Source: a virus. From it: a DNA stretch of 25,331 bases. Positions 2,328-25,331 of this stretch are shown piece after piece. Position numbers and translations under genes: made by a program. Each line of letters begins with the position of its first letter. Within the stretch, counting starts at the first letter, position 1. The notes beneath the pieces are model-generated. The model was not told the origin of the DNA. It was given only the letters and a program-made list of their open reading frames with translations, and ran no database searches. The stretch lies in IMG/VR virus record IMGVR_UViG_3300010355_001591; one strand, written 5' to 3'.

Positions 2328-2537
2328 ATGGTAAATAATAAAAAAAATAATGATGAGGACTCCATCGATGATATTCTCGATGATGACGAGTTCGTAAGAA
2401 TGCTCGTATATCTGTTAAAGAGGAAGGCAGGGGATATTGCAGATGAGATGCGTACCGGCAAAGTATCATCTAAAAACGGTGAGATCGTAAAAGATCTCTG
2501 TCAAATGGTTGTTGATCGGGAGAGAGGGGAGAGGTAA
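2328..2537 (+). CDS. Hypothetical protein, 69 aa, translationally coupled to the helicase
   Basis: GGGGGGT RBS; TAATG overlap at 2535-2539. Confidence 0.7.
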   Translation: MVNNKKNNDEDSIDDILDDDEFVRMLVYLLKRKAGDIADEMRTGKVSSKNGEIVKDLCQMVVDRERGER

Positions 2538-3937
2538 TGGATGAGAAAGAGCAGGCAAAAAAGATCGAGTTTTTGGATCGGATTTTGGATTATGACGGCA
2601 ACGAATATCTTGACGAGTTGTGCTTGGATGAGAAATACAGACCAGATATTGGTAAGATCCTTGCACGACTTTTTTCTATTTATAGTTTCAAAACATCAGA
2701 GGATACGGAGACGGTATATTATTTTGATGCTGGGATATATCGAGAGGCTGAGACGTTCATAAAAAACAAGATCGAGGAGATATTTCAAGAGAAGGCGACA
2801 ACGCATCTGGTTATCGAGATTATCAATCACATTAAACGAGCAACGTATGTGCCACGGGAAGAGTTCAACAAAAATAAAAACTATCTGCCTGTGAAAAATG
2901 GATTGATCAATCTTGAGACGTTTGAGATTGAGCCGTTTGATCCAGAGAAGATTTTCACCTTCAAGATAGACGTAGAGTATGATCCCACGGCTGACTGCCC
3001 CCTGTTCAAAAAAACCATATCAGAGGTGGTAGATGAAGAGGATATTCCCGTTCTTCAGGAGTTCTTCGGATACTGTTTGTATCCTGCAATGCCGACTCAT
3101 AAGTCTTTCTGGCTATACGGAGGGGGTAGAAACGGCAAATCAACGGTTGTCAATATTTTAAAATATCTGCTTGGGGATGGAAATTATGCCTCTGTACCAT
3201 TAGATCAATTATACGGGGATAACCGGTTCTCAAAGGCGAATCTGTATGGAAAGATGGCAAACATTATACCTGAACCAAACTCAAAACGAGAGATGGAGAC
3301 CACTGAGTTTAAAATGTTGACTGGTGGTGATACTGTCGATGCCGAGGTGAAAAATAAACAAAAACCAATACGGTTTGTCAACTTTGCAAAGTTCATCATA
3401 CATGGGAACAGATTTCCAACAGTAAAAGATAACACAACCGCATTCTGGGAGAGGATGCTCGTCATCAAATTTCCAAATACATTTTTAGATGACGATCCTG
3501 CAACAATAAAGGATCTCGATAAGAATATTGTTGAAGCAGGTGAGATGCCAGGAATATTAAACTGGTGCATAGACGGACTGAGGAGATTGATGAATAATAA
3601 CTTCAGATTTACGTTGAGCAAGGGTATTGAGGATATTAAACTGGAGTTTATGAAGATGTCAAACTCTGCGATGGCATTTGTCGATGAGGCATGCACACTA
3701 AAGCCTGATCTATGGATTGTAGTAGCAGATCTTTACAATCACTATAAGGATTGGTGTGAGGAGAATGGTGTTGATTCTGTATCCAAGGATAAGTTCTCTA
3801 AAACATTGGGAGATATACCACGAGTCAAATTAGATAGAAAGAGAGTAGATGGTATATTAAAGAGAGTGGCGATAGGTATAAACATAAAAGATGATAATAT
3901 CGATGATAAAGAGGATTTGGATAATTGGATATCATGA
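2537..3937 (+). CDS. D5/P4-family SF3 replicative helicase (D5_N, ATPase, C-terminal winged helix); no primase domain
   Basis: VKNGLINLET...F.PFDP (D5_N); Walker A GGGRNGKST; LYGKMANII; FKMLTGGD; AFWERMLVIKF; LYNHYKDWCEENG. Confidence 0.92.
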   Translation: MDEKEQAKKIEFLDRILDYDGNEYLDELCLDEKYRPDIGKILARLFSIYSFKTSEDTETVYYFDAGIYREAETFIKNKIEEIFQEKATTHLVIEIINHIKRATYVPREEFNKNKNYLPVKNGLINLETFEIEPFDPEKIFTFKIDVEYDPTADCPLFKKTISEVVDEEDIPVLQEFFGYCLYPAMPTHKSFWLYGGGRNGKSTVVNILKYLLGDGNYASVPLDQLYGDNRFSKANLYGKMANIIPEPNSKREMETTEFKMLTGGDTVDAEVKNKQKPIRFVNFAKFIIHGNRFPTVKDNTTAFWERMLVIKFPNTFLDDDPATIKDLDKNIVEAGEMPGILNWCIDGLRRLMNNNFRFTLSKGIEDIKLEFMKMSNSAMAFVDEACTLKPDLWIVVADLYNHYKDWCEENGVDSVSKDKFSKTLGDIPRVKLDRKRVDGILKRVAIGINIKDDNIDDKEDLDNWIS

Positions 3938-9094: not shown

Positions 9095-12000
9095 ATGGTT
9101 GGATTTGAAGCATTCCTGCTGTTGTGCATCGTGTTTCCGGCGATGCTCTTCCTCTTTATCCTAATCCTGTTCTTATTCTTATCGGTTTTTGTGGCGGGAT
9201 CATTCTTTATCTGCGGAACGGCAGTCTGTATTTTGCTTGTAGGAGTCTCACTGATAACAGTTCTCGGTCTCGGAGGCATAGCATCCCTTGTTTGTCTCGG
9301 ATTACTGTTCTGCACCGGACTTTGCATTTTAACGGCCGGATTTTTAACCTGTTGTAGTTTACCGTGCCTACCCTGCTTCTTATGTGCCTTGCTGATACCC
9401 CTATCGTTTGTCGGGGTTGGCATCTGTTTTGCTTTTGCATTATTCGGGCTGGCTATCCCGATCGTCTGTGTATCGATCACGATACCTGCATTTTTAATAT
9501 TCATGTTCTCAATGGCAGTTTTGCCACCCCCGCTATCCTGTCTGCTTTGCGGTTGTCTGTCTGTTCTATATATAATATATCCATTTGGTCTAATTTGTGG
9601 ATCTATTGGTGGTTTAATCGGTTGCTATTTATTCTGCGGGATTGGGTGTCTGCCAGGATGCATTATAGGATGGTTATGTGGGTTATGTCTTGATTTTGTT
9701 CTTATTTGTATAATTATCGTTGGCATCTTCATGTTTATAATAGGAGTCGTCTTCTGTATCATAGGACCATTCTTCTGCATCATAGAACCATTCCTCTGTA
9801 TCATAGGATTCATCCCATGTATCATAGGAGCCTACTTCTGTATCATAGGATTCATCCCATGTATCCTCGGACCCGTCTTCTGTATCATAGGAGCCTACTT
9901 CTGTATCATCGGAGCCGTCATCTGTATCATTCCAATATCTGGTTGGATCATCGGACCCATTATGATTATCATTGGAGCCGTCATCTGTATCATCGGAGCC
10001 TACTTCTGCATCATAGAACCATTCCTCTGTATCATAGGAGTCACCCCATGTATCATCGGAGCCGTCTTCTGTATCATAGGATTCATCCCATGTATCGCAG
10101 GAGCCGTCTTCTGTATCATAGGAGCCTACTTCTGTATCATCGGAGCCGTCTTCCGTATCATCGGACCCATTATGATTATCATTGGATCAGTCCTCATCAT
10201 TATAGGCATCTCTGCCACCTCCGCCCCGTTTTTATGTATCGCTCTCCTCCTCGCCATCGCCGTCTTCATCGTAACCAACATTATCCGCCACATCATTGAA
10301 CTCGTTCTGATCTGCCTCGTCCTTATCATCGTGCCGTGCCTAACCGTGCCGATCGTGGTGTTCGGGTTCCTGGCGATGCTGGGGTTCGCCTTATGTTTGG
10401 GGCTGATACCGTGTGTAGGGTTTGCGGTTTGTATAGGATGGATCATCTGCGGGTTTATTAGCTGGATCGGGAGCTGGCTGGGAATATTTATACTTTATAT
10501 AATATACGTGGCAATAGGAGTGGTATTCTTAATTATATTTGTAATTCTTCTTATTATAGGAATAATTGCCGCTATTTGTCAGATAGTACCTTGTATTGGA
10601 ACACCTTGTTATATGTTTATTGTGGTCTTAATGTTAATAATCCTAACAGTTTTTGCCTTGTTCTATTCAGTATATGGACCGTGCATAATGATTCTTACAA
10701 GTATATTTGGGATTTTTGCTTTCCCATTCTCAATACCAATGTTATTATTTAGCATTCTCTGGTTATTAACGGCACAAACTGTTATGACCATAGTATTTGC
10801 AATGATGATCTTTCTTGGCGCATTATTTTTATCATATTCGCCACTTACGTTTTGCCCGATCATTGGATATATAATGTTTTTCATCTTCGGTATTCCTACC
10901 CTAATTGGTGCAATCATTATTCTTGGCATACTTAGTATTATTTGCATTATCATCGCTGTAATATTTGGTGCTCTAACCCTTGCATCCGCATTCTTCTGTA
11001 ACTGGCTCGGTTTCGTAATCGTCCCGATAATCATCTTCATAGAAAGCATAATCGTTCTGGTAATCCTCGTCTCGATCATCGTGCTTATATCGGCTGCGGC
11101 ACTGCTAACAGGGATAATGTTCATAGTATCGGTCGTGGCAGTATTATGCTGTATCGGAGGGCTATTTGTCTCATCGGCACTCTGCATTACGGGGATAATC
11201 GGATCGATCGCCTGTCTCATCCTATCCATAATCGGGGCGATCTGCATCGTTCTCGGATCGATCTGTTTTATAACATTTGTCTTATCTTGTATCTGTTCGC
11301 TGGTGGTCTGTTCGCCTACCTTATTTCTTGCCTTGCTTTTAACTGGAGCGATCGGTCTCGTTCTGGCGTTAGCCATCATATTCTGTTCTCTGGTTCTCGG
11401 AGTGATGTGTCTTGCCGTAGCTCCGTTAACGCTGACTGTATCAATCATAGCGTTATCTGTGGTTCTATGCGGATTGATTGCCTTGGTGCTGGCGTTATCA
11501 ATTTTATGTGCAGGGATAACCATCGTGCTGGCGTTATGTCTGGCGGCTACACTGGCGATTATTGGCGTCTTCTTATGCTTAGCCATAATTTGTTTATCTT
11601 TGACCGCATTGGTTTTATCACTTGGAATAATCGCATCAGGTCTATTGATAATGCTATTCGGATGTTGTCTATTCCCATTCGGAGGTTTAATCTGTATAAT
11701 ACTCGGATTGAGCGTGGCATGTCTCGGATTAACCGCATTGGTCTTAGCTTTAACAACGCTTTGCTTATCATCGGCAGCCTGTTTACTACTCTCGATCGGA
11801 TTCTGTCTCACCGCTCTTTGTTGCATGATGGCAACCGCCATACCGTTCTTTACGCTTGTAATAATCTGTCTCATACTAACGATTACGTTTATAGCGGGAT
11901 CGGTGCTCTGTCTTTCCCTATTGATCCTGCTGGTTAGCATAACTGGAATTGTTGCTGCCATGCTTCTCTGTCTGTTCGGATTTATTATTTTTGCTCTCGC

Positions 12001-12448
12001 ATTATCGATTCTGACTTTAGGCTGTGCTGGTTTCACCTGTCTGATGATCTCAATAGCGTTAGCATTGGCAATAACCGCCTTAATAGCAGGAATCCTCCTC
12101 CCGATCTGCCTGATTTTAACCGCCGGAGCTTGGGGGATCTTCTTTATTCTTCTTTCAATATTGATCGGGCTGGGGATAATCTTTGGAATACTTGTTATAA
12201 TAGCATTAATTTTTATCTGTATCATTTTCTTAATCCTGTTGACGCCACCAGCTCTTTTGTTAGCCATCTGTTTGGCGTTGGTTGTTGTGGCAGCATTTGC
12301 GGCCTGTATTGTGGCTGCAATAGCAGGGCTTTATATCGTAGTAACAATCGCTCAATCTCTGCTTGTGGGCGGGGGCGGCGGTTTAAGTATGCTCTGGTCG
12401 GCTTGCTTGTCGTCTGCTCAAACAATATATGCAGGGATATTCGGATAA
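9095..12448 (+). CDS. Giant, essentially uncharged Cys-rich hydrophobic protein, 1117 aa; function unknown
   Basis: 3.35-kb uninterrupted ORF with GAGGAG RBS; hand count 0 K, 2 R, 1 D, 5 E and about 90 C. Confidence 0.85.
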   Translation: MVGFEAFLLLCIVFPAMLFLFILILFLFLSVFVAGSFFICGTAVCILLVGVSLITVLGLGGIASLVCLGLLFCTGLCILTAGFLTCCSLPCLPCFLCALLIPLSFVGVGICFAFALFGLAIPIVCVSITIPAFLIFMFSMAVLPPPLSCLLCGCLSVLYIIYPFGLICGSIGGLIGCYLFCGIGCLPGCIIGWLCGLCLDFVLICIIIVGIFMFIIGVVFCIIGPFFCIIEPFLCIIGFIPCIIGAYFCIIGFIPCILGPVFCIIGAYFCIIGAVICIIPISGWIIGPIMIIIGAVICIIGAYFCIIEPFLCIIGVTPCIIGAVFCIIGFIPCIAGAVFCIIGAYFCIIGAVFRIIGPIMIIIGSVLIIIGISATSAPFLCIALLLAIAVFIVTNIIRHIIELVLICLVLIIVPCLTVPIVVFGFLAMLGFALCLGLIPCVGFAVCIGWIICGFISWIGSWLGIFILYIIYVAIGVVFLIIFVILLIIGIIAAICQIVPCIGTPCYMFIVVLMLIILTVFALFYSVYGPCIMILTSIFGIFAFPFSIPMLLFSILWLLTAQTVMTIVFAMMIFLGALFLSYSPLTFCPIIGYIMFFIFGIPTLIGAIIILGILSIICIIIAVIFGALTLASAFFCNWLGFVIVPIIIFIESIIVLVILVSIIVLISAAALLTGIMFIVSVVAVLCCIGGLFVSSALCITGIIGSIACLILSIIGAICIVLGSICFITFVLSCICSLVVCSPTLFLALLLTGAIGLVLALAIIFCSLVLGVMCLAVAPLTLTVSIIALSVVLCGLIALVLALSILCAGITIVLALCLAATLAIIGVFLCLAIICLSLTALVLSLGIIASGLLIMLFGCCLFPFGGLICIILGLSVACLGLTALVLALTTLCLSSAACLLLSIGFCLTALCCMMATAIPFFTLVIICLILTITFIAGSVLCLSLLILLVSITGIVAAMLLCLFGFIIFALALSILTLGCAGFTCLMISIALALAITALIAGILLPICLILTAGAWGIFFILLSILIGLGIIFGILVIIALIFICIIFLILLTPPALLLAICLALVVVAAFAACIVAAIAGLYIVVTIAQSLLVGGGGGLSMLWSACLSSAQTIYAGIFG
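9755..10195 (+). repeat. Degenerate 21-bp tandem repeat (about 21 units) encoding heptads CIIG(A/P/F)xx
   Basis: TGTATCAT(A/C)GGA recurs every 21 bp; units include CIIGAYF, CIIGFIP, CIIEPFL and CIIGAVF. Confidence 0.9.
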
Positions 12449-15572: not shown

Positions 15573-15719
15573 ATGGCATCACTAATTATAGATGATGCAG
15601 CGATAGCGACCGGGTATCAAGTGATCAATCTTGGTATTGTCTTATTTGGTACAACAATGAGCGAAGGCATGAAATGTATTAGTCTATTATATCGGTGGTG
15701 CTGGGGCGGAGTTGTTTAA
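15573..15719 (+). CDS. Hydrophobic microprotein, 48 aa (MASLIIDDAAIATG...RWCWGGVV)
   Basis: 3' part of track ORF 15531-15719; start reassigned to follow the previous stop. Confidence 0.55.
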   Translation: MASLIIDDAAIATGYQVINLGIVLFGTTMSEGMKCISLLYRWCWGGVV

Positions 15720-18343: not shown

Positions 18344-18571
18344 ATGGCAAAAGCATTTGACATACAAGGCATAATGTATTTAGCAATCGGATTAATCATT
18401 ACGGGTGCTCTACTTCCAGTATCTTTGAACATGTTCACAAGTGCAGATATTGATTTTACAGGATCGTTGTCTGGGCTTGAGAATCTCTGGTCGTTAATAC
18501 CCATGATGGTTGTTCTTGCAATAGCGATTGCAGTTATATATTACGCCATGGACTCTATGAGAAACCAGTAA
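18344..18571 (+). CDS. Spindle-shaped virus major capsid protein-like (SSV1 VP1/VP3, His1 type), 75 aa
   Basis: Two hydrophobic helices (LAIGLIITGALLP and LWSLIPMMVVLAIAIAVIYY) joined by a short polar linker, matching the VP1 pattern GIVLLPV...LLNLVP..IL; flanked by AT-rich promoter-like and T-rich terminator-like tracts. Confidence 0.75.
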   Translation: MAKAFDIQGIMYLAIGLIITGALLPVSLNMFTSADIDFTGSLSGLENLWSLIPMMVVLAIAIAVIYYAMDSMRNQ

Positions 18572-18681: not shown

Positions 18682-18984
18682 ATGAAATTAATGAAAACAA
18701 CCAGGGATTTTATTCATGATGATAACGGGGCATTCACCCTCAAAGAGATGGTAGAGGCAATTATTGCTCTCGGAGTGGGCATCATTCTTGCTGGGATACT
18801 TTTACCGATTGCGTTTCAGATGTTTGGTGGATTGCCAGAGAATCTGGCGGTTGGACCAGATATGCAGCCGACACTATTGGCGACCATCTGGGGATACATA
18901 CCTGTTATAGTTGTTGTAATGCTCATGATCGGATTGATATTTGCTATTATCGGCTGGTTCGGCGGCGGGGAAGAAGGATCATAA
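18682..18984 (+). CDS. Second MCP paralogue with a class III (prepilin-like) leader, 100 aa
   Basis: GIILAGILLPI...IWGYIPVIVVVMLMIG parallels MCP1; leader RDFIHDDNG/AFTLKE. Confidence 0.7.
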   Translation: MKLMKTTRDFIHDDNGAFTLKEMVEAIIALGVGIILAGILLPIAFQMFGGLPENLAVGPDMQPTLLATIWGYIPVIVVVMLMIGLIFAIIGWFGGGEEGS

Positions 18985-19003
18985 CAATATAGGAGGTACA
19001 ATA

Positions 19004-19171
19004 ATGAGTAATTTTAATTTCAAATCTTTTTTAACAAACGATGACGGAATAGGCGGATTGTTAGATTCTATGATTGCGTATTGGGGTCCAGTAATGCAGG
19101 CGTGTGCTGCTGAGATGGGCATAATTATTAAAACTGTCATATTAGCAATAGGAATAACCGGAGGCAAGTAA
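19004..19171 (+). CDS. 55-aa hydrophobic protein with the same leader type (KSFLTNDDG/IGGLL)
   Basis: ATG at 19004 follows GGAGGT; ends TGGK. Confidence 0.7.
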   Translation: MSNFNFKSFLTNDDGIGGLLDSMIAYWGPVMQACAAEMGIIIKTVILAIGITGGK

Positions 19172-19172
19172 A

Positions 19173-19295
19173 ATGGCAATACCATATTTAATAATCTCGT
19201 CATGTATGCCCTCATCGCAGATGATGGTTTATCTCATTCAATCAGTATTTGGATCTCTATCTTTGTTTTTGCAACAAGTTGCATCAGCACTATGA
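19173..19295 (+). CDS. Hydrophobic microprotein, 40 aa (MAIPYLIISSCMPSSQMMVYLIQSVF...)
   Basis: Translated by hand; GGAGG RBS; no D/E/K/R. Confidence 0.6.
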   Translation: MAIPYLIISSCMPSSQMMVYLIQSVFGSLSLFLQQVASAL

Positions 19296-19329
19296 AGACT
19301 GGTATAAACATGGTAAAGATGAGGCAATT

Positions 19330-20235
19330 ATGGCAATACAAGATAATCCAGCACGAGTTAGTATTTTTTTAGTCTCTCTTCTCTTATTATTAGTGATAAC
19401 TCCCTTTTTCTCTGTCTCTCTTACTACGGCACAAGATGTTACTGTTGCTACTACAGATCAAACTACCAGTAACACTGTTATTACAAAAGATGATGCCAAG
19501 ACAGACACAACAAACACCATAACACAAACTAAAACTTTTTTTAATCAGTTGTCGGATGCTGCAAAAACAGCAGCAGACCTCTATCCAGATGTTCGGTCTG
19601 GCACATATACAACCAGACCTGCACCAGAGGATGAACAAGCCACAACAACAGATTATGCCATAAGAACCACAACGTATGGAGATGAGCCTGCTGTATATTC
19701 TCAAAAGCAGGCGAACACATCAACGTACTCTATAACTCAACCACCAGCCATGCCATCCAGCAAAACCACTGGAAGAATGACTGGGGCATATTCAGTCACT
19801 CAACCACCAGCGGTTAAGATGACACCACTAATAATGCCAACAGTAACACCCGCAACACCAATACAGCCACCACCGATAAGTGGAGGAGGACTGGGTTTAG
19901 GTGGTAATGGTAATGGACAAATTACCGGTGTGGGAGATGTGACGGGATATATAAATGAGGGTACGGGATTCATAACTGATGCCGTAAATACAGCGTTCGC
20001 TCATAAAGAGATCCTCTATATGATGGCAATCCTAATCATCGCCGCAATATTCGCACAGATCGGAGGATGGAGGATAGGAGTTATCGGATTGGTAGGCATG
20101 TTGCTTGTCTGTGCAGGAATAACAGCATCAACTGGCATAATGATCGTACCTACATACGTGATATTCGTGATTGCGATCTTTGCCGTTGCATTAGTGATTA
20201 TATCTTTTACAAGAACGATGGGCGGAGGAAGTTAG
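19330..20235 (+). CDS. Secreted Thr/Pro-rich protein with about 3 C-terminal TM helices (VP4-like spike/tail topology), 301 aa
   Basis: ATG at 19330 follows GAGG; signal peptide; YS(I/V)TQPPA x2; C-terminal TM cluster. Confidence 0.7.
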   Translation: MAIQDNPARVSIFLVSLLLLLVITPFFSVSLTTAQDVTVATTDQTTSNTVITKDDAKTDTTNTITQTKTFFNQLSDAAKTAADLYPDVRSGTYTTRPAPEDEQATTTDYAIRTTTYGDEPAVYSQKQANTSTYSITQPPAMPSSKTTGRMTGAYSVTQPPAVKMTPLIMPTVTPATPIQPPPISGGGLGLGGNGNGQITGVGDVTGYINEGTGFITDAVNTAFAHKEILYMMAILIIAAIFAQIGGWRIGVIGLVGMLLVCAGITASTGIMIVPTYVIFVIAIFAVALVIISFTRTMGGGS

Positions 20236-20236
20236 G

Positions 20237-21118
20237 ATGAGCAGGTATCTAACCAGCCTAATCATATTCGGTGCTGTTTATTTTCTTATCGTAGCCATGT
20301 TTGCCCCTGGAGTGCCTGCAGGATATAGTGATCAGATCTTTGCAGAGGCAGAACAAATATCGTCATCCAATGTTGCTAAAGATCTTCAGATCACTGTCAC
20401 CACTGAGGGCACTCCATCCAAAAGTTTATTGCCAGAAAACGTTGGCAAGTTTGAACCGTTCAACCTGTCGCATGTCCATCCTAACAATGTCCCGAGCGTG
20501 ACAGAACGTCGTGCCAATCTTCAATCTGGAGAGATGATCGCTCCTGTCAGAGACGGTCAGGTGATGTTGTATCATGAGAACATGTTCTATTCTGCCATGC
20601 CCGTTTATTTTTCAGTGCCGTTATCAGAGATACAAGGACCAATCAGAACGATCGAAGAATACAACTCGCAGTTTATAGTATTCCGTCCTGACATGAACAC
20701 GCAAGTTATTGAGACGTATTATAACCAGATGTTAGGAAGCGAGCAGATCAAATCACGAGTCGAGGCGGAACAACAGTCAGCACAATATCAGTCGCTCGGG
20801 TTGATCGAGAGGATCGGTCAGTCTGTTTCGAATATGATCGCATCGATAGGTTCACAGGTGATGAAGGTATTCGGTGATGTTATAAATCCGTTGCTATCAA
20901 TCAAATACTCGCTTACTTATGATTTTGGAATATCAGAACTATTCGGATTGGAAAGACCGTTCACGATCGGTCAGATCATCTGTTATATTTGGTCTCTTGC
21001 AGTGTTTATAGAAATATTCATGATCCTGCCCGAATCAAGCAGTACGATAGGAACTGCTTTAAAATATGTGATAGGTATAGGGATAGCCGTACCTTGGTTT
21101 ACATTCCTTGCATTCTAA
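20237..21118 (+). CDS. Membrane protein with N-terminal signal/TM and two C-terminal TMs, 293 aa (probable virion pole component)
   Basis: Topology and position directly after the VP4-like gene. Confidence 0.7.
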   Translation: MSRYLTSLIIFGAVYFLIVAMFAPGVPAGYSDQIFAEAEQISSSNVAKDLQITVTTEGTPSKSLLPENVGKFEPFNLSHVHPNNVPSVTERRANLQSGEMIAPVRDGQVMLYHENMFYSAMPVYFSVPLSEIQGPIRTIEEYNSQFIVFRPDMNTQVIETYYNQMLGSEQIKSRVEAEQQSAQYQSLGLIERIGQSVSNMIASIGSQVMKVFGDVINPLLSIKYSLTYDFGISELFGLERPFTIGQIICYIWSLAVFIEIFMILPESSSTIGTALKYVIGIGIAVPWFTFLAF

Positions 21119-21136
21119 AACACGAGATGATAAGAT

Positions 21137-21436
21137 ATGACTACAAAATATGGCTTCATGATAAAGACTGAACAAGTTGAGATGAAAGATGCTCTTAATC
21201 TGGTAGAAGACTACAAGAAAAAGCGTAAAGAACGGTTAGAGCTCATGAAGAAAGTTGAGACGAAAGCGGACAAGAACCGGCTCAAAAAATTAGCCGAGTA
21301 TGCTCGTGATCAAGGCAACCATTATGCTGCTCTTGCAAAGATCCATGCAGCCGAGATCAAACAGCTGAGAGCAATACAGAATAAAAAACCAAGAAAAAAC
21401 AGAACAAAAGTAAAGATAAATAAATGGCGGACGTGA
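21137..21436 (+). CDS. Basic coiled-coil protein, 99 aa
   Basis: K/R-rich helical sequence. Confidence 0.75.
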   Translation: MTTKYGFMIKTEQVEMKDALNLVEDYKKKRKERLELMKKVETKADKNRLKKLAEYARDQGNHYAALAKIHAAEIKQLRAIQNKKPRKNRTKVKINKWRT

Positions 21437-21441
21437 TATAA

Positions 21442-22281
21442 ATGAACCCAATTCTTTGTTATCCCGGTGGAAAGAGAGGACTAAAAAAAGAGATCTTAAA
21501 AAGAATTCCCCCGCATGACACATATATTGAGCCTTTTGTTGGTGGTGGGAGCGTCTTCTTTGCAAAGCCGAGAGCTAAAAAAGAGATTATCAATGATAAA
21601 GATAAAGATTTAATAGATTTTTACAAAGCATGCAGAAGACCTGACGTATCTTTTAAAAAGGCAAATTTACGTGCATCACGAGAACGATATGAGAAATATA
21701 AAAAAAGTAAGCCTAAAACCCCGCAATCAAAAGTAAACCGTTTCCTATACCTTAATAAACGGAGTTTTGGTGGTGTGATGAATAATGGTTATTATGCACC
21801 GTCCACGGCTAAAACGAAAGGGAAGGGAGGAGGACAGGAGGGTATTAAAAAGATCGGTAGAGAACAACAGGACCGACTTCGTGGGGTAAAGATAGAGAAC
21901 AGAGATTTTGAGAAAGTTATTAAAGATTACGATAACAAGAACGCCTTTATCTATATGGATCCACCATATTATGGAGAATCAAGAGGGCTGTATAAGCATG
22001 ATGATAGATCAGCCACACCAGAGCGTGTCTTACAGGCAGCTGCAAGAGCAAAAGGTAAATGTCTCGTCTCATATAATGATTGCCCGGAAGTAAGAAAAAT
22101 CGCTCGTAAATTAGGACTTTATATATACCAAGTGCGGACGAAGTATTCCTTGAATAGTGCAAGTAATAATAAAGATAAAACAGAGTTGTTAATAAGCAAC
22201 TATCCAATGAGGAATGGTAAACCTGTAAAAACAAAGACGGGGAGGGGGCAAACGATAAAGAGGGATATAAATGGTCACTAA
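21442..22281 (+). CDS. Dam/D12-class N6-adenine DNA methyltransferase
   Basis: YPGGKR; motif I YIEPFVGGGSVFF; IINDKD; NRDFEKVI; catalytic motif IV FIYMDPPY; LVSYND; ELLISNY. Confidence 0.93.
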   Translation: MNPILCYPGGKRGLKKEILKRIPPHDTYIEPFVGGGSVFFAKPRAKKEIINDKDKDLIDFYKACRRPDVSFKKANLRASRERYEKYKKSKPKTPQSKVNRFLYLNKRSFGGVMNNGYYAPSTAKTKGKGGGQEGIKKIGREQQDRLRGVKIENRDFEKVIKDYDNKNAFIYMDPPYYGESRGLYKHDDRSATPERVLQAAARAKGKCLVSYNDCPEVRKIARKLGLYIYQVRTKYSLNSASNNKDKTELLISNYPMRNGKPVKTKTGRGQTIKRDINGH

Positions 22282-23221
22282 AAAAAAGAATTTAAAAGAG
22301 TGGGCTCGTGTTGACTGGGCAAGAAATGCAGTATCATCACATGCAAACATGATCGATTATGGAAAAAAGGCAAAAATAATAGTCCCCGATACTCAAGATG
22401 CCTTTACGGACTGGTATTATAAAGGTGGGCATAAAAAATACGACTTCGAGGGAAAAGACCATCCGATACCTCAAGCAAAAAAAGTTGCAAACACACATTA
22501 CAAATATGCGACAGCCTCCGGTGCCCGCAACGCTGGTATTATTGCGAAACGTGCAGAAAAAATCCTGTTAAATAATTTTACCAGAAAAGAAAGAAGCCAG
22601 ATGGGAAAAATAATCTTTAGCGTTAGACCTATTGTAAAAAGTGAGGATGCAGCAGGAATGATCGAATATAGAGGAAGGGGGGATGCTTCCGTTATAACTA
22701 TTGATGATAGTTATGTTGATGATGAAGACATATTCACGCATGAATTAGTTCATGCTCGACTGTACGGAACGAATACTGAGCCAAAGGATAGAGATACCCA
22801 TGAAAAAATGACAGAACTGGAGACAGTAGGAAGGATATCTCACCCAGAGAAAAAAAAGGCAGGGTATTATCACTATCTTAAAAAAAGTTCTATAAGTATG
22901 ATAGATGCCATAAAGCACGATAGGATATTATTGACTGGTTCGATGACGAAAAGCAGGAAAGGCGATAGATTTGTTGCAGATGTACGTAAAAAATATAATG
23001 AGTCAATGATAAAAGACGCTCATTTCTCTCCAGCAGAAAAATTAGACCGATATTACCAAGTCATATTGCCTGATGGTGAAAAAATATCTATCCATCAAAG
23101 AGGCAAACCAAATGCAAAAGTCTCACTATCTAAGATTGTTCAAAATTTTAAAAAGAGGTATGGGAAAGATATCAAAGTATACGAGTGGAGAGACGGTAAG
23201 AGAGTACTATTAAGGAGGTGA
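22271..23221 (+). CDS. Basic protein with a zincin-like HExxH motif (putative metallopeptidase), 316 aa
   Basis: AAG..(n)..ITID...IFTHELVHARL...E; overlaps the MTase stop. Confidence 0.6.
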   Translation: MVTKKKNLKEWARVDWARNAVSSHANMIDYGKKAKIIVPDTQDAFTDWYYKGGHKKYDFEGKDHPIPQAKKVANTHYKYATASGARNAGIIAKRAEKILLNNFTRKERSQMGKIIFSVRPIVKSEDAAGMIEYRGRGDASVITIDDSYVDDEDIFTHELVHARLYGTNTEPKDRDTHEKMTELETVGRISHPEKKKAGYYHYLKKSSISMIDAIKHDRILLTGSMTKSRKGDRFVADVRKKYNESMIKDAHFSPAEKLDRYYQVILPDGEKISIHQRGKPNAKVSLSKIVQNFKKRYGKDIKVYEWRDGKRVLLRR

Positions 23222-23228
23222 GGTAAAA

Positions 23229-23354
23229 ATGACCGCTAAAAAAATTAAAGATCTTGGGATAAAGCGACAAAAAGGCAAGCTATATTTCGTTAAAGGCGAT
23301 CCGCTGTCGGTGTATGAGGCTGACATGTCTCGTGGCAAAAAAAGGAAAAAATAA
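23229..23354 (+). CDS. Small basic protein, 41 aa (MTAKKIKDLGIKRQKGKLYFVKGDPLSVYEADMSRGKKRKK)
   Basis: Translated by hand; GGAGGTGAGG RBS. Confidence 0.7.
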   Translation: MTAKKIKDLGIKRQKGKLYFVKGDPLSVYEADMSRGKKRKK

Positions 23355-23370
23355 TGGAAGATGATTTAAG

Positions 23371-23733
23371 ATGGCACGAAAAAAACTAACCATTCGCAGG
23401 AAAGGGTATCATAGAAAAGGGTATACACGGAAAGACGGTACTAAAGTTAGTCCAGCGTACGTGCCTCCATCTACATATAAAGCAGAAGACCGGGGAGAGT
23501 CTGGAAGAACTCCTAAAAGTAAAAAATGGTATAAACCAACGACCACGATGAACTGGTCTAAAGATATGCCTGTTGCTGAAAGAAGAAGGAACGCATTACG
23601 GGCTCATGGTGGAGATGCTCTTGCAACTGCCAGAGCGTTACAGGCACTATCAAATGTTACGACTGATCGAGAGACAAAAAGAGAGGCTGAGAAAGATGCA
23701 AAGTATTTCTTTGATCTCCATAAGAAAAAATAA
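23371..23733 (+). CDS. Highly basic protein, 120 aa; candidate DNA-condensing core protein
   Basis: RKGYHRKGYTRKDG repeat and a helical C-terminal domain (RRRNAL..HGG.AL..AR.LQAL). Confidence 0.7.
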   Translation: MARKKLTIRRKGYHRKGYTRKDGTKVSPAYVPPSTYKAEDRGESGRTPKSKKWYKPTTTMNWSKDMPVAERRRNALRAHGGDALATARALQALSNVTTDRETKREAEKDAKYFFDLHKKK

Positions 23734-23770
23734 ATAGTATTAAATATTAATAATAAGGAGTGATAATAAA

Positions 23771-24055
23771 ATGAGACATATTAGAGAGTTGTTTAAAAAC
23801 GATGATGCACTTGCAACAATAGGTTGTGGATTAGCAGGAACTCCATTGGGACTGCTCGGTCTATGTTGTGGACCACTAAACTTGTGTTTTTGTTGTTTAC
23901 CAACAATAATACCAGCATTTATCGGTGGAGGAATAGGTGCAGCAATAGGATGCGTGACTGATGCTATTGTTACAGCATGCAGCCCAATCATGGCATTGTT
24001 AGGATGTGCTGGTGGATCAACCAGCGGCAGCACAGTTCAAGCCATAAGAGTCTAA
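23771..24055 (+). CDS. Cys/Gly-rich hydrophobic protein with a class III-like leader, 94 aa
   Basis: GGAGTGA RBS; RELFKNDDA/LATIG; CCGP and CFCCLP. Confidence 0.75.
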   Translation: MRHIRELFKNDDALATIGCGLAGTPLGLLGLCCGPLNLCFCCLPTIIPAFIGGGIGAAIGCVTDAIVTACSPIMALLGCAGGSTSGSTVQAIRV

Positions 24056-24691: not shown

Positions 24692-25252
24692 TCATTTGAT
24701 GAAATTCATCTTTATTATATCAGCCTCGTCTTCAGCAGTATAATTTTCTATCGTCTGGATGTTCGTATGCCGTATCGCTTTGGAGATCAGGTTTGTAGGC
24801 ACACCTTCACGCCCCATCTTGGCGATCCATGAATACCGAAGAGAGTGAGTGTTGATCTTGTAATATCGCATTGCAAACATCTTAACCCCATTCAATACCT
24901 TATCAAAAGAATAGTCCAGATCTAAATATTGTTTTTTCACGGCAGACGGTATCTTGATCAGGGCATCAACATCTTTGCCCTTGCTCAGTTTTTTACGTTT
25001 CCGTGCCCTTATCTTTTGTATTCTCTCATTGTTATTTTTGAAACTCAAGACCGCCTCAACAGCCTCTGATATCCTTGAACCGTTCTCTATCTGAGTCAAG
25101 AGAATTGAAGTATAAAGAAGACGGGTAAGAACTGTTGCCGGTACTGGTCTCTTTTTCAATTCGTTATACTCTTTTTCTTTGGCAAGATCTCGAAGGTCAT
25201 TCTTAAACCTCTGATCCCATTCATCAAAATCCAATCTTTTATCCCAGCTCAT
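24692..25252 (-). CDS. Compact tyrosine recombinase (integrase/resolvase), 186 aa
   Basis: Catalytic R (NGSRISEA), K (RKRK), HxxR (THSLRY), H (IRHTN) and Y (IENY). Confidence 0.88.
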   Translation of the reverse strand: MSWDKRLDFDEWDQRFKNDLRDLAKEKEYNELKKRPVPATVLTRLLYTSILLTQIENGSRISEAVEAVLSFKNNNERIQKIRARKRKKLSKGKDVDALIKIPSAVKKQYLDLDYSFDKVLNGVKMFAMRYYKINTHSLRYSWIAKMGREGVPTNLISKAIRHTNIQTIENYTAEDEADIIKMNFIK

Positions 25253-25331
25253 TGTTATCTTATACAGTCATTTATGGATATAAAGATAACACTTTAACAT
25301 CTACACGTTACCATATCACCATAAGATAACA
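25205..25331 (+). repeat. Terminal direct repeat, right copy (circularity overlap)
   Basis: Identical to 1-127. Confidence 0.97.

Follow-up and report, generated by a model that had tools for sequence, protein, structure and literature searches.

The stretch of DNA analyzed here, IMG/VR virus record IMGVR_UViG_3300010355_001591 (25,331 nucleotides; referred to below as the window), is the genome of a spindle-shaped archaeal virus. The genome is circular and complete at about 25.2 kb, as shown by an exact 127-bp terminal overlap (1-127 = 25205-25331). Spindle-shaped viruses are the most widespread type of virus specific to archaea, and we know of no account of the steps by which their membrane-like capsid proteins are inserted, processed and built into virions. 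The subject of this analysis is a short N-terminal leader found on three proteins of the window. An earlier note, made from the sequence alone, had described it as a type IV prepilin-like (class III) leader and proposed that a host peptidase removes it during capsid maturation.

The capsid genes are located on the + strand. The first of them (18344..18571) encodes a leaderless major capsid protein of the His1/SSV type, 75 amino acids (aa) long and beginning, with MAKAFD, where the mature form of its paralogue is predicted to begin, which matches the Pfam family His1_capsid with 32.6 bits (cut-off 27). The second (18682..18984, +) encodes a 100-aa precursor of a capsid-protein paralogue; its leader, aa 1-16, reads MKLMKTTRDFIHDDNG (18682..18729, +), and the cut is predicted between G16 and the following AFTLKE. 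The capsid genes are directly followed by a gene for a small membrane protein of 55 aa (19004..19171, +). The leader of this protein, aa 1-15, is MSNFNFKSFLTNDDG (19004-19048, +), and the predicted mature part begins at IGGLL. The third carrier is a Cys/Gly-rich hydrophobic protein of 94 aa (23771..24055, +), in which the leader, aa 1-13, is MRHIRELFKNDDA (23771-23809, +) and the mature part would start with LATIGCG. The N-termini quoted in the earlier note were found to be exact, both in sequence and in coordinates.

All three proteins share a common layout: a basic stretch is followed by [FL]xx[DN][DE]x[GA] and then by a hydrophobic part. The leaders are 16, 15 and 13 aa long in the order of the genes, and each contains K or R. 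Position -1 relative to the predicted cut is occupied by G in the paralogue and the 55-aa protein and by A in the Cys-rich protein, and it is G or A in all orthologues examined. The two small proteins have D at both -2 and -3. In the paralogue N is found at -2 and D at -3 and -4, and the -2 residue of its homologues can be N, T, V, D, E, R, S or K. A hydrophobic segment follows the site in every case; the paralogue reaches it within 5 residues, the Cys-rich protein within 6 and the 55-aa protein within 18. Strong Shine-Dalgarno sites are present just 5′ of the genes for the 55-aa protein (AGGAGG, 18991-18996) and the Cys-rich protein (AGGAG, 23756-23760), which makes these two starts credible.

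Beyond the leader the carriers are otherwise unrelated, as had been claimed: in BLASTP the parts past the leader either align with E 0.82 or do not align. Hhalign marks the protein encoded at 18682 as a genuine paralogue of the 18344 capsid protein, relating it to the canonical capsid family with a probability of 97.4% and E 1.2e-11. The Pfam model His1_capsid gives it 18.8 bits only, and all 11 members of its family match that model weakly. Its AlphaFold2 (AF2) model is a two-helix hairpin (helices 20-47 and 65-96), with the leader as a low-confidence coil. The 55-aa and Cys-rich proteins are not members of the His1/SSV-type capsid family. Archaellin and pilin families (PF01917, PF07790) were not matched by any of the three proteins at E<=0.1, nor by 11 homologues of the paralogue at E<=1. 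Judged by these searches, the carriers are not pilins or archaellins, and the likeness is confined to the leader and the first residues behind it.

The statistics of the window by themselves give what we consider modest evidence for the motif. A loose regular expression describing it is expected to match 0.6 times among 171 six-frame open reading frames (ORFs) of the window, and three or more matches would occur with P of about 0.02. It is the conservation of the leader in related viruses, more than these figures, that makes the observation real. The relatives comprise two syntenic genomes from JGI metagenomes, L001 and L002, each of about 20 kb, and six short contigs, L003-L008. In homologues of the paralogue the pattern [LF][LI]x[DN][DE]x[GA] is kept in 10 of 10, always before AFTL[KNQ]EM. 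The earlier note had named a lack of conservation in homologues as grounds for abandoning its proposal, and the proposal survived this test. For the Cys-rich protein the leader is identical at 13 of 13 positions in P0020, a homologue with 54% identity overall, and also in L001, L002 and P0019; in the comparison with P0020 the leader is thus under stronger constraint than the mature part. Syntenic orthologues of the 55-aa protein in L001-L005, L007 and L008 all carry a leader ending in [DE]D[DS]?[AG].

The leader is also modular. In L001-L004 nearly the same 13-aa leader, MRHI[KR]ELFKNDDA, stands on both the small protein and the unrelated Cys-rich protein. The two copies in L001 differ at four bases, three of them synonymous. 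Four protein families carry the leader among the related metagenomic viruses. Capsid proteins differ in this respect between relatives: in the alignments, those of the window, L001 and L002 start bare, no more than two residues from the predicted cut, and orthologues in L003, L006, L007 and L008 have a leader of 13-17 aa. Orthologues with and without the leader exist, so on the alignments the leader is dispensable for the capsid fold. Because it moves between proteins and is absent from a working orthologue, it behaves as a removable signal.

These data could also be explained if the leader were retained as a conserved cytoplasmic tag, serving topology, recruitment of the signal recognition particle or of a viral chaperone, or contact with DNA or virion proteins. 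The stronger constraint on the leader than on the mature part would fit a binding function equally well, and an Arg-rich N-terminal region of VP1 was suggested to contact DNA in SSV19 (PMC9351363). However, capsid orthologues function whether they carry the leader or not, unrelated proteins exchange one and the same leader, and the invariant small residue at -1 is a signature of cleavage. In addition, the homologous extension of SSV1 VP1 was shown experimentally to be removed (PMC5748691). We therefore regard a retained tag as unlikely.

In archaea, sites of class III signal peptides have G, A or S at -1 and charged residues, acidic or basic, at -2/-3, and precede a hydrophobic domain (PMC4371748, PMC10117864). 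Two window proteins conform to this rule (D-D-G and D-D-A), and the paralogue has N at -2. For comparison with real cellular leaders, metagenome DNA was scanned with a pattern for the conserved archaellin start FTGLEAAIVLIAF, which yielded 120 loci and 133 unique leaders. All six of the loci tested encode archaellins, matching PF01917 with E from 1e-35 to 1e-38, and the mature chain of PDB 5TFY begins exactly at the cut assigned to these leaders. Most of the leaders are 10 aa long; examples are MMKLFKNEDA, MRMIKLFKNEDA, MKRVIRNEDA and MMKRIITNDDG. Their residue counts are A69/G58 at -1, D48/E32/N22 at -2, E56/D53 at -3 and N55 at -4, with K/R at -5 and L/F/I at -6 and -7.

A score matrix was derived from 126 of these metagenomic pre-archaellin leaders, covering positions -8 to -1, and 169 six-frame ORFs of the window served as the null set (maximum 8.5 bits, median -5.6 bits). 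Two of the three window leaders scored clearly above this background at the predicted cut, namely those of the Cys-rich protein (15.6 bits) and of the 55-aa protein (15.0 bits). The paralogue of L001 (MKLIKNEDA) reached 19.5 bits, also at the predicted cut. The window paralogue obtained 5.0 bits at its own predicted cut.

The likeness to pre-archaellins (ArlB/FlaB, PF01917, with the FTGLEAAIVLIAF start and cut by ArlK/FlaK) thus extends over several features. Common to both are a short leader of about 10-16 aa with a basic first half, the order L/F/I at -7/-6, K/R at -5, N at -4, E/D at -3, D/E/N at -2 and A/G at -1, and a hydrophobic helix after the leader. The viral paralogue also has the F, T and E of FTxxE: F18, T19 and E22 are invariant in its family, an echo of the FTGLE start of archaellins. 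The earlier note had called this FTLxE start pilin-like. The start is present, but its likeness is to archaellins rather than to pilins in general. In contrast to pre-archaellins, the viral proteins have no archaellin domain and are two-helix hairpins or tiny Cys/Gly-rich peptides. Most of them lack the +3 Gly, and their hydrophobic stretch does not always start at +1.

Such close likeness to archaellin leaders raises the question of whether the proteins are decoys, which would occupy the host peptidase or the assembly of the archaellum and so block motility or superinfection, without being virion components. It is known that archaeal viruses use or encode parts of type IV filaments (PMC12426801, PMC7217056). 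Against this, one carrier is clearly a paralogue of the capsid protein, the gene for the 55-aa protein is fixed directly after the capsid genes in every relative, no carrier has an archaellin or pilin domain, and a site of the same type is found on VP1, a proven virion protein of SSV1. We consider decoys very improbable.

A viral parallel to cleavage by a host peptidase is provided by the pilins PilA1/PilA2 of pleolipovirus SNJ2, which are processed by host PibD (PMC12426801). As proposed here for the window, a viral product with a class III leader (in our case a predicted one) is handled by a peptidase of the host. The first 18 residues of the SNJ2 pilins are missing from the assembled pilus (PMC12426801). 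The SNJ2 leader reads MDLKALKPKLVGSDNERA before VSPVIG, and 101 related haloarchaeal pilin leaders share its layout, which like that of the window leaders consists of a basic part, a hydrophobic pair and an acidic box, followed by A. The SNJ2 proteins are, however, genuine pilins (PF07790) acquired by the virus; they build pili of the host, and the virus can do without them, whereas the carriers in the window belong to the capsid type or to the small proteins of the virion module and contain no pilin domain.

The only capsid-protein cut that experiments have mapped in a spindle virus is that of SSV1 VP1. This protein is cut before Glu66 by an unknown protease, listed as such since the 1980s, and the five residues that precede the site are essential (PMC5748691). 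In the SSV1 sequence (L010, 12567-13001) the mapped cut reads LTKG before EATNIGVLLGLFIFIL, which is followed by a hydrophobic helix. The VP1 proteins of ASV1, SSV2, SSV8, SSV19, SMF1 and a Kamchatka SSV (L014-L019) likewise have [KR][KR][GA] before E and then a hydrophobic helix. The basic leaders of VP1 are only 11-16 aa long in SSV2, SSV8, SSV19 and the Kamchatka SSV, and the fusellovirus VP3 paralogues start at the position of the VP1 cut. The annotated start codon of SMF1 VP1 appears to be misplaced; the in-frame upstream sequence contains RKLRKG before EGSTNIG. In Halorubrum virus BLv25 the capsid protein has DTRG before QAG, and His1 VP21 is leaderless. The mapped SSV1 site, those of the six other fuselloviruses and that of BLv25 all conform to the class III rule.

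SSV1 VP1 and the window paralogue have much in common. Both are two-helix capsid-type proteins made with an N-terminal extension, with a conserved patch ahead of the mapped or predicted cut and a small residue at -1, and each has a paralogue lacking the leader (VP3 in SSV1) whose start coincides with the cut. They differ in that the sites of Sulfolobales viruses are basic ([KR][KR][GA] before E) and those of the window acidic (N-D-D-[AG]), and in that the leader is on the main capsid protein there and on the paralogue here; the sequence similarity is remote.

To extend the comparison, a capsid profile built from the core only, leaders left out, was run against 1.84 billion representative proteins and retrieved 106 homologues, of which 62 were leader-bearing, defined as having at least 8 residues before the profile start. 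A [KRDE][GA] ending within -4 to +5 of the profile start was found in 37 of the 62, as against 19.5 +/- 3.6 in shuffled sequences. With a wider junction window the figures were 48 of 62 and 27.1. In the junctions of distant homologues R or K dominates at -2, and D/N are enriched at -3 and -4. The type of site goes with the lineage of the host: viruses of Sulfolobales have basic sites, a haloarchaeal virus has D-x-R-G and the window has N-[DE]-D-[AG], which argues for an enzyme of the host.

Some of the distant homologues have unusual junctions. P0046 shows one of bacterial pilin type, with SQAG before FSIIELAVG, F at +1 and E at +5. Others (P0024, P0047, P0058, P0074) are tandem fusions of two capsid-type hairpins. 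In the fused proteins a class III-like site (SKRG or DDRG before E) precedes the second copy, as if they were cut internally.

The propeptide may instead be removed by another host membrane protease or by autocatalysis, in which case the likeness to class III leaders would be convergent or would reflect shared needs of targeting. Paralogues lacking a leader begin at the predicted cut, which makes removal plausible regardless of the enzyme involved; formally, the protease of SSV1 has yet to be named (PMC5748691), and the -2 residue varies in the paralogue family. Yet the match to archaellin leaders spans -7 to -1 and is not limited to -1, the dependence of the site type on host lineage points to an enzyme that reads the leaders of those hosts, and A24 peptidases are known for cutting on the cytoplasmic side, immediately ahead of a membrane helix. 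A protease of the virus itself was not detected by Pfam among the 30 window ORFs tested, which include all those of at least 250 aa in this complete genome; this agrees with the statement in the earlier note that no prepilin peptidase is visible. We find a different protease or self-cleavage improbable. Two further types of processing were ruled out: a double-glycine leader of the bacteriocin type, as the -2 residue is D and not G, and a rhomboid-type cut, on grounds of topology.

The explanation we prefer, and judge to be probable, is that all three leaders represent pre-archaellin-type class III signal peptides, which an A24 peptidase of the host cuts. The motif, its conservation and transfer between proteins, its match to pre-archaellin leaders and its fit to the SSV1 cut are direct observations; the cleavage itself, the enzyme responsible and the membrane topology are inferences from them. 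The basic first half of the leader would hold the N-terminus on the cytoplasmic side as the hydrophobic part goes into the membrane. On this face the aspartic peptidase (ArlK/FlaK/PibD family) would then cut after the G/A behind the N-[DE]-[DEN] box, giving mature proteins with their N-termini along the inner side of the virion. Cytoplasmic cleavage fits the finding that both termini of SSV19 VP1 face the capsid interior (PMC9351363). With no recognizable peptidase of its own, the virus would copy the leader of host archaellins. The host may therefore be an archaeon with FTGLE-type archaellins, presumably a methanogen or a relative.

Several observations weigh against this explanation. The 5.0 bits of the window paralogue do not exceed background, and its -2 residue (N) is uncharged; N at this position nevertheless occurs in 22 of about 128 real archaellin leaders, or about one in six. 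Capsid leaders of the distant relatives L007 and L008 (RDAGA before Q and KDVSA before Q) score only 0-4.6 bits. In two of the three window proteins the hydrophobic domain does not start at +1, a looser fit than that of pilins: the paralogue has K, E and E among its first nine mature residues, and the first strong hydrophobic stretch of the 55-aa protein is aa 33-54. The +3 Gly typical of archaellins is present only in the 55-aa protein. Among the 62 leader-bearing capsid homologues, 14-25, depending on the junction window, lack a site of this kind. The annotated leaders of SSV1 and ASV1, at about 65 aa, far exceed the normal class III length; the start codon of SSV1 VP1 is uncertain (PMC5748691). 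Finally, this genome's main capsid protein (18344-18571) is made without a leader, and for this reason the leader may regulate assembly rather than enable it.

Overall, the earlier proposal of a class III leader recognized by a prepilin-type peptidase of the host came through all the sequence tests run, with the amendment that the closest cellular model is the pre-archaellin leader and not pilin leaders generally. Its extension to capsid maturation would apply to the paralogue and the two small proteins, but not to the main capsid protein. The further suggestions of the earlier note, that subunits stay in the membrane until cleavage frees them or that the proteins interfere with host pili, are conjectural. 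As to a broader view, in which the class III signal peptidase of the host (PibD/ArlK/FlaK) would be the general maturation protease of spindle viruses, SSV1 VP1 included, with leaders co-evolving with the archaellin or pilin leaders of the host, we rate its chances as even.

Prior knowledge covered class III signal peptides, the cleavage by host PibD of true pilins that a virus encodes (PMC12426801) and the processing of SSV1 VP1 (PMC5748691). What appears to be new is virion-type proteins as a predicted class of substrates for this known peptidase system. A literature search, with subscription journals outside its coverage, found no paper proposing a prepilin-type peptidase for capsid maturation in spindle viruses. 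Disruption of pibD in Sulfolobus makes cells resistant to SSV9 although the virus adsorbs, and neither new virus nor replication of the viral genome is seen (PMC7217056).

Were the proposal correct, the prepilin-type peptidase of the host would give a name to the long-unknown enzyme of SSV1 VP1 maturation, and on the broader view it would be a host factor needed after entry. The substrates of A24 peptidases would extend from pilins, archaellins and binding proteins to virion proteins. The enzyme is a concrete candidate that can be tested; Sulfolobus, Haloferax and Methanococcus already offer knockouts and in vitro assays. The type of leader would also offer a sequence handle, or marker of host lineage, for uncultured spindle viruses; in the present case it points to an archaeon with archaellins of the FTGLE type.

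Searches for the origin of the virus and for related structures gave limited information. No relative of the window was found in IMG/VR, and none in INPHARED, either by DNA or by three proteins. Two scans of genome contigs, one with the capsid paralogue and one with a 490-aa surface protein, did not find a provirus. A PDB profile search returned chance membrane matches only, and no tRNA was found in the window. An Atlas search gave a weak lead to Methanobacteriota. The names of some of the relatives' contigs hint at oil-seep or oil-polluted marine sediment.

Other genes of the window include those for a D5-type primase-helicase (2537-3937), a VapE-like protein and a D12 methyltransferase. A 186-aa tyrosine-recombinase-like protein is encoded on the - strand (24692-25252) and matches only the C-terminal part of the Phage_integrase model. 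Its length is equal in L001 and L002, which indicates a short, intact gene and not a split integrase. The 1117-aa ORF at 9095-12448, described in the earlier note as almost uncharged and Cys-rich, has no Pfam match and is missing from the shorter relatives L001 and L002 according to a k-mer map.

Further possible leader carriers were considered. The ORF at 19202-19372 (MYALIADDG...) was rejected as a chance match to the regular expression, since it is not conserved in relatives. At 15573-15719 the sequence MASLIIDDAA precedes IATGYQVINLGIVLF; this ORF lacks both a basic residue and a clear ribosome-binding site and is listed as a candidate fourth carrier only. Between the genes for the 55-aa protein and a 328-aa protein lies a tiny hydrophobic ORF of 40 aa (19173-19295, MGLFLPSSQNVVYCVQ...), in a frame different from that of the ORF at 19202. 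It is conserved in L001, L003 and L005 and is likely to be a real micro-gene of the virion module.

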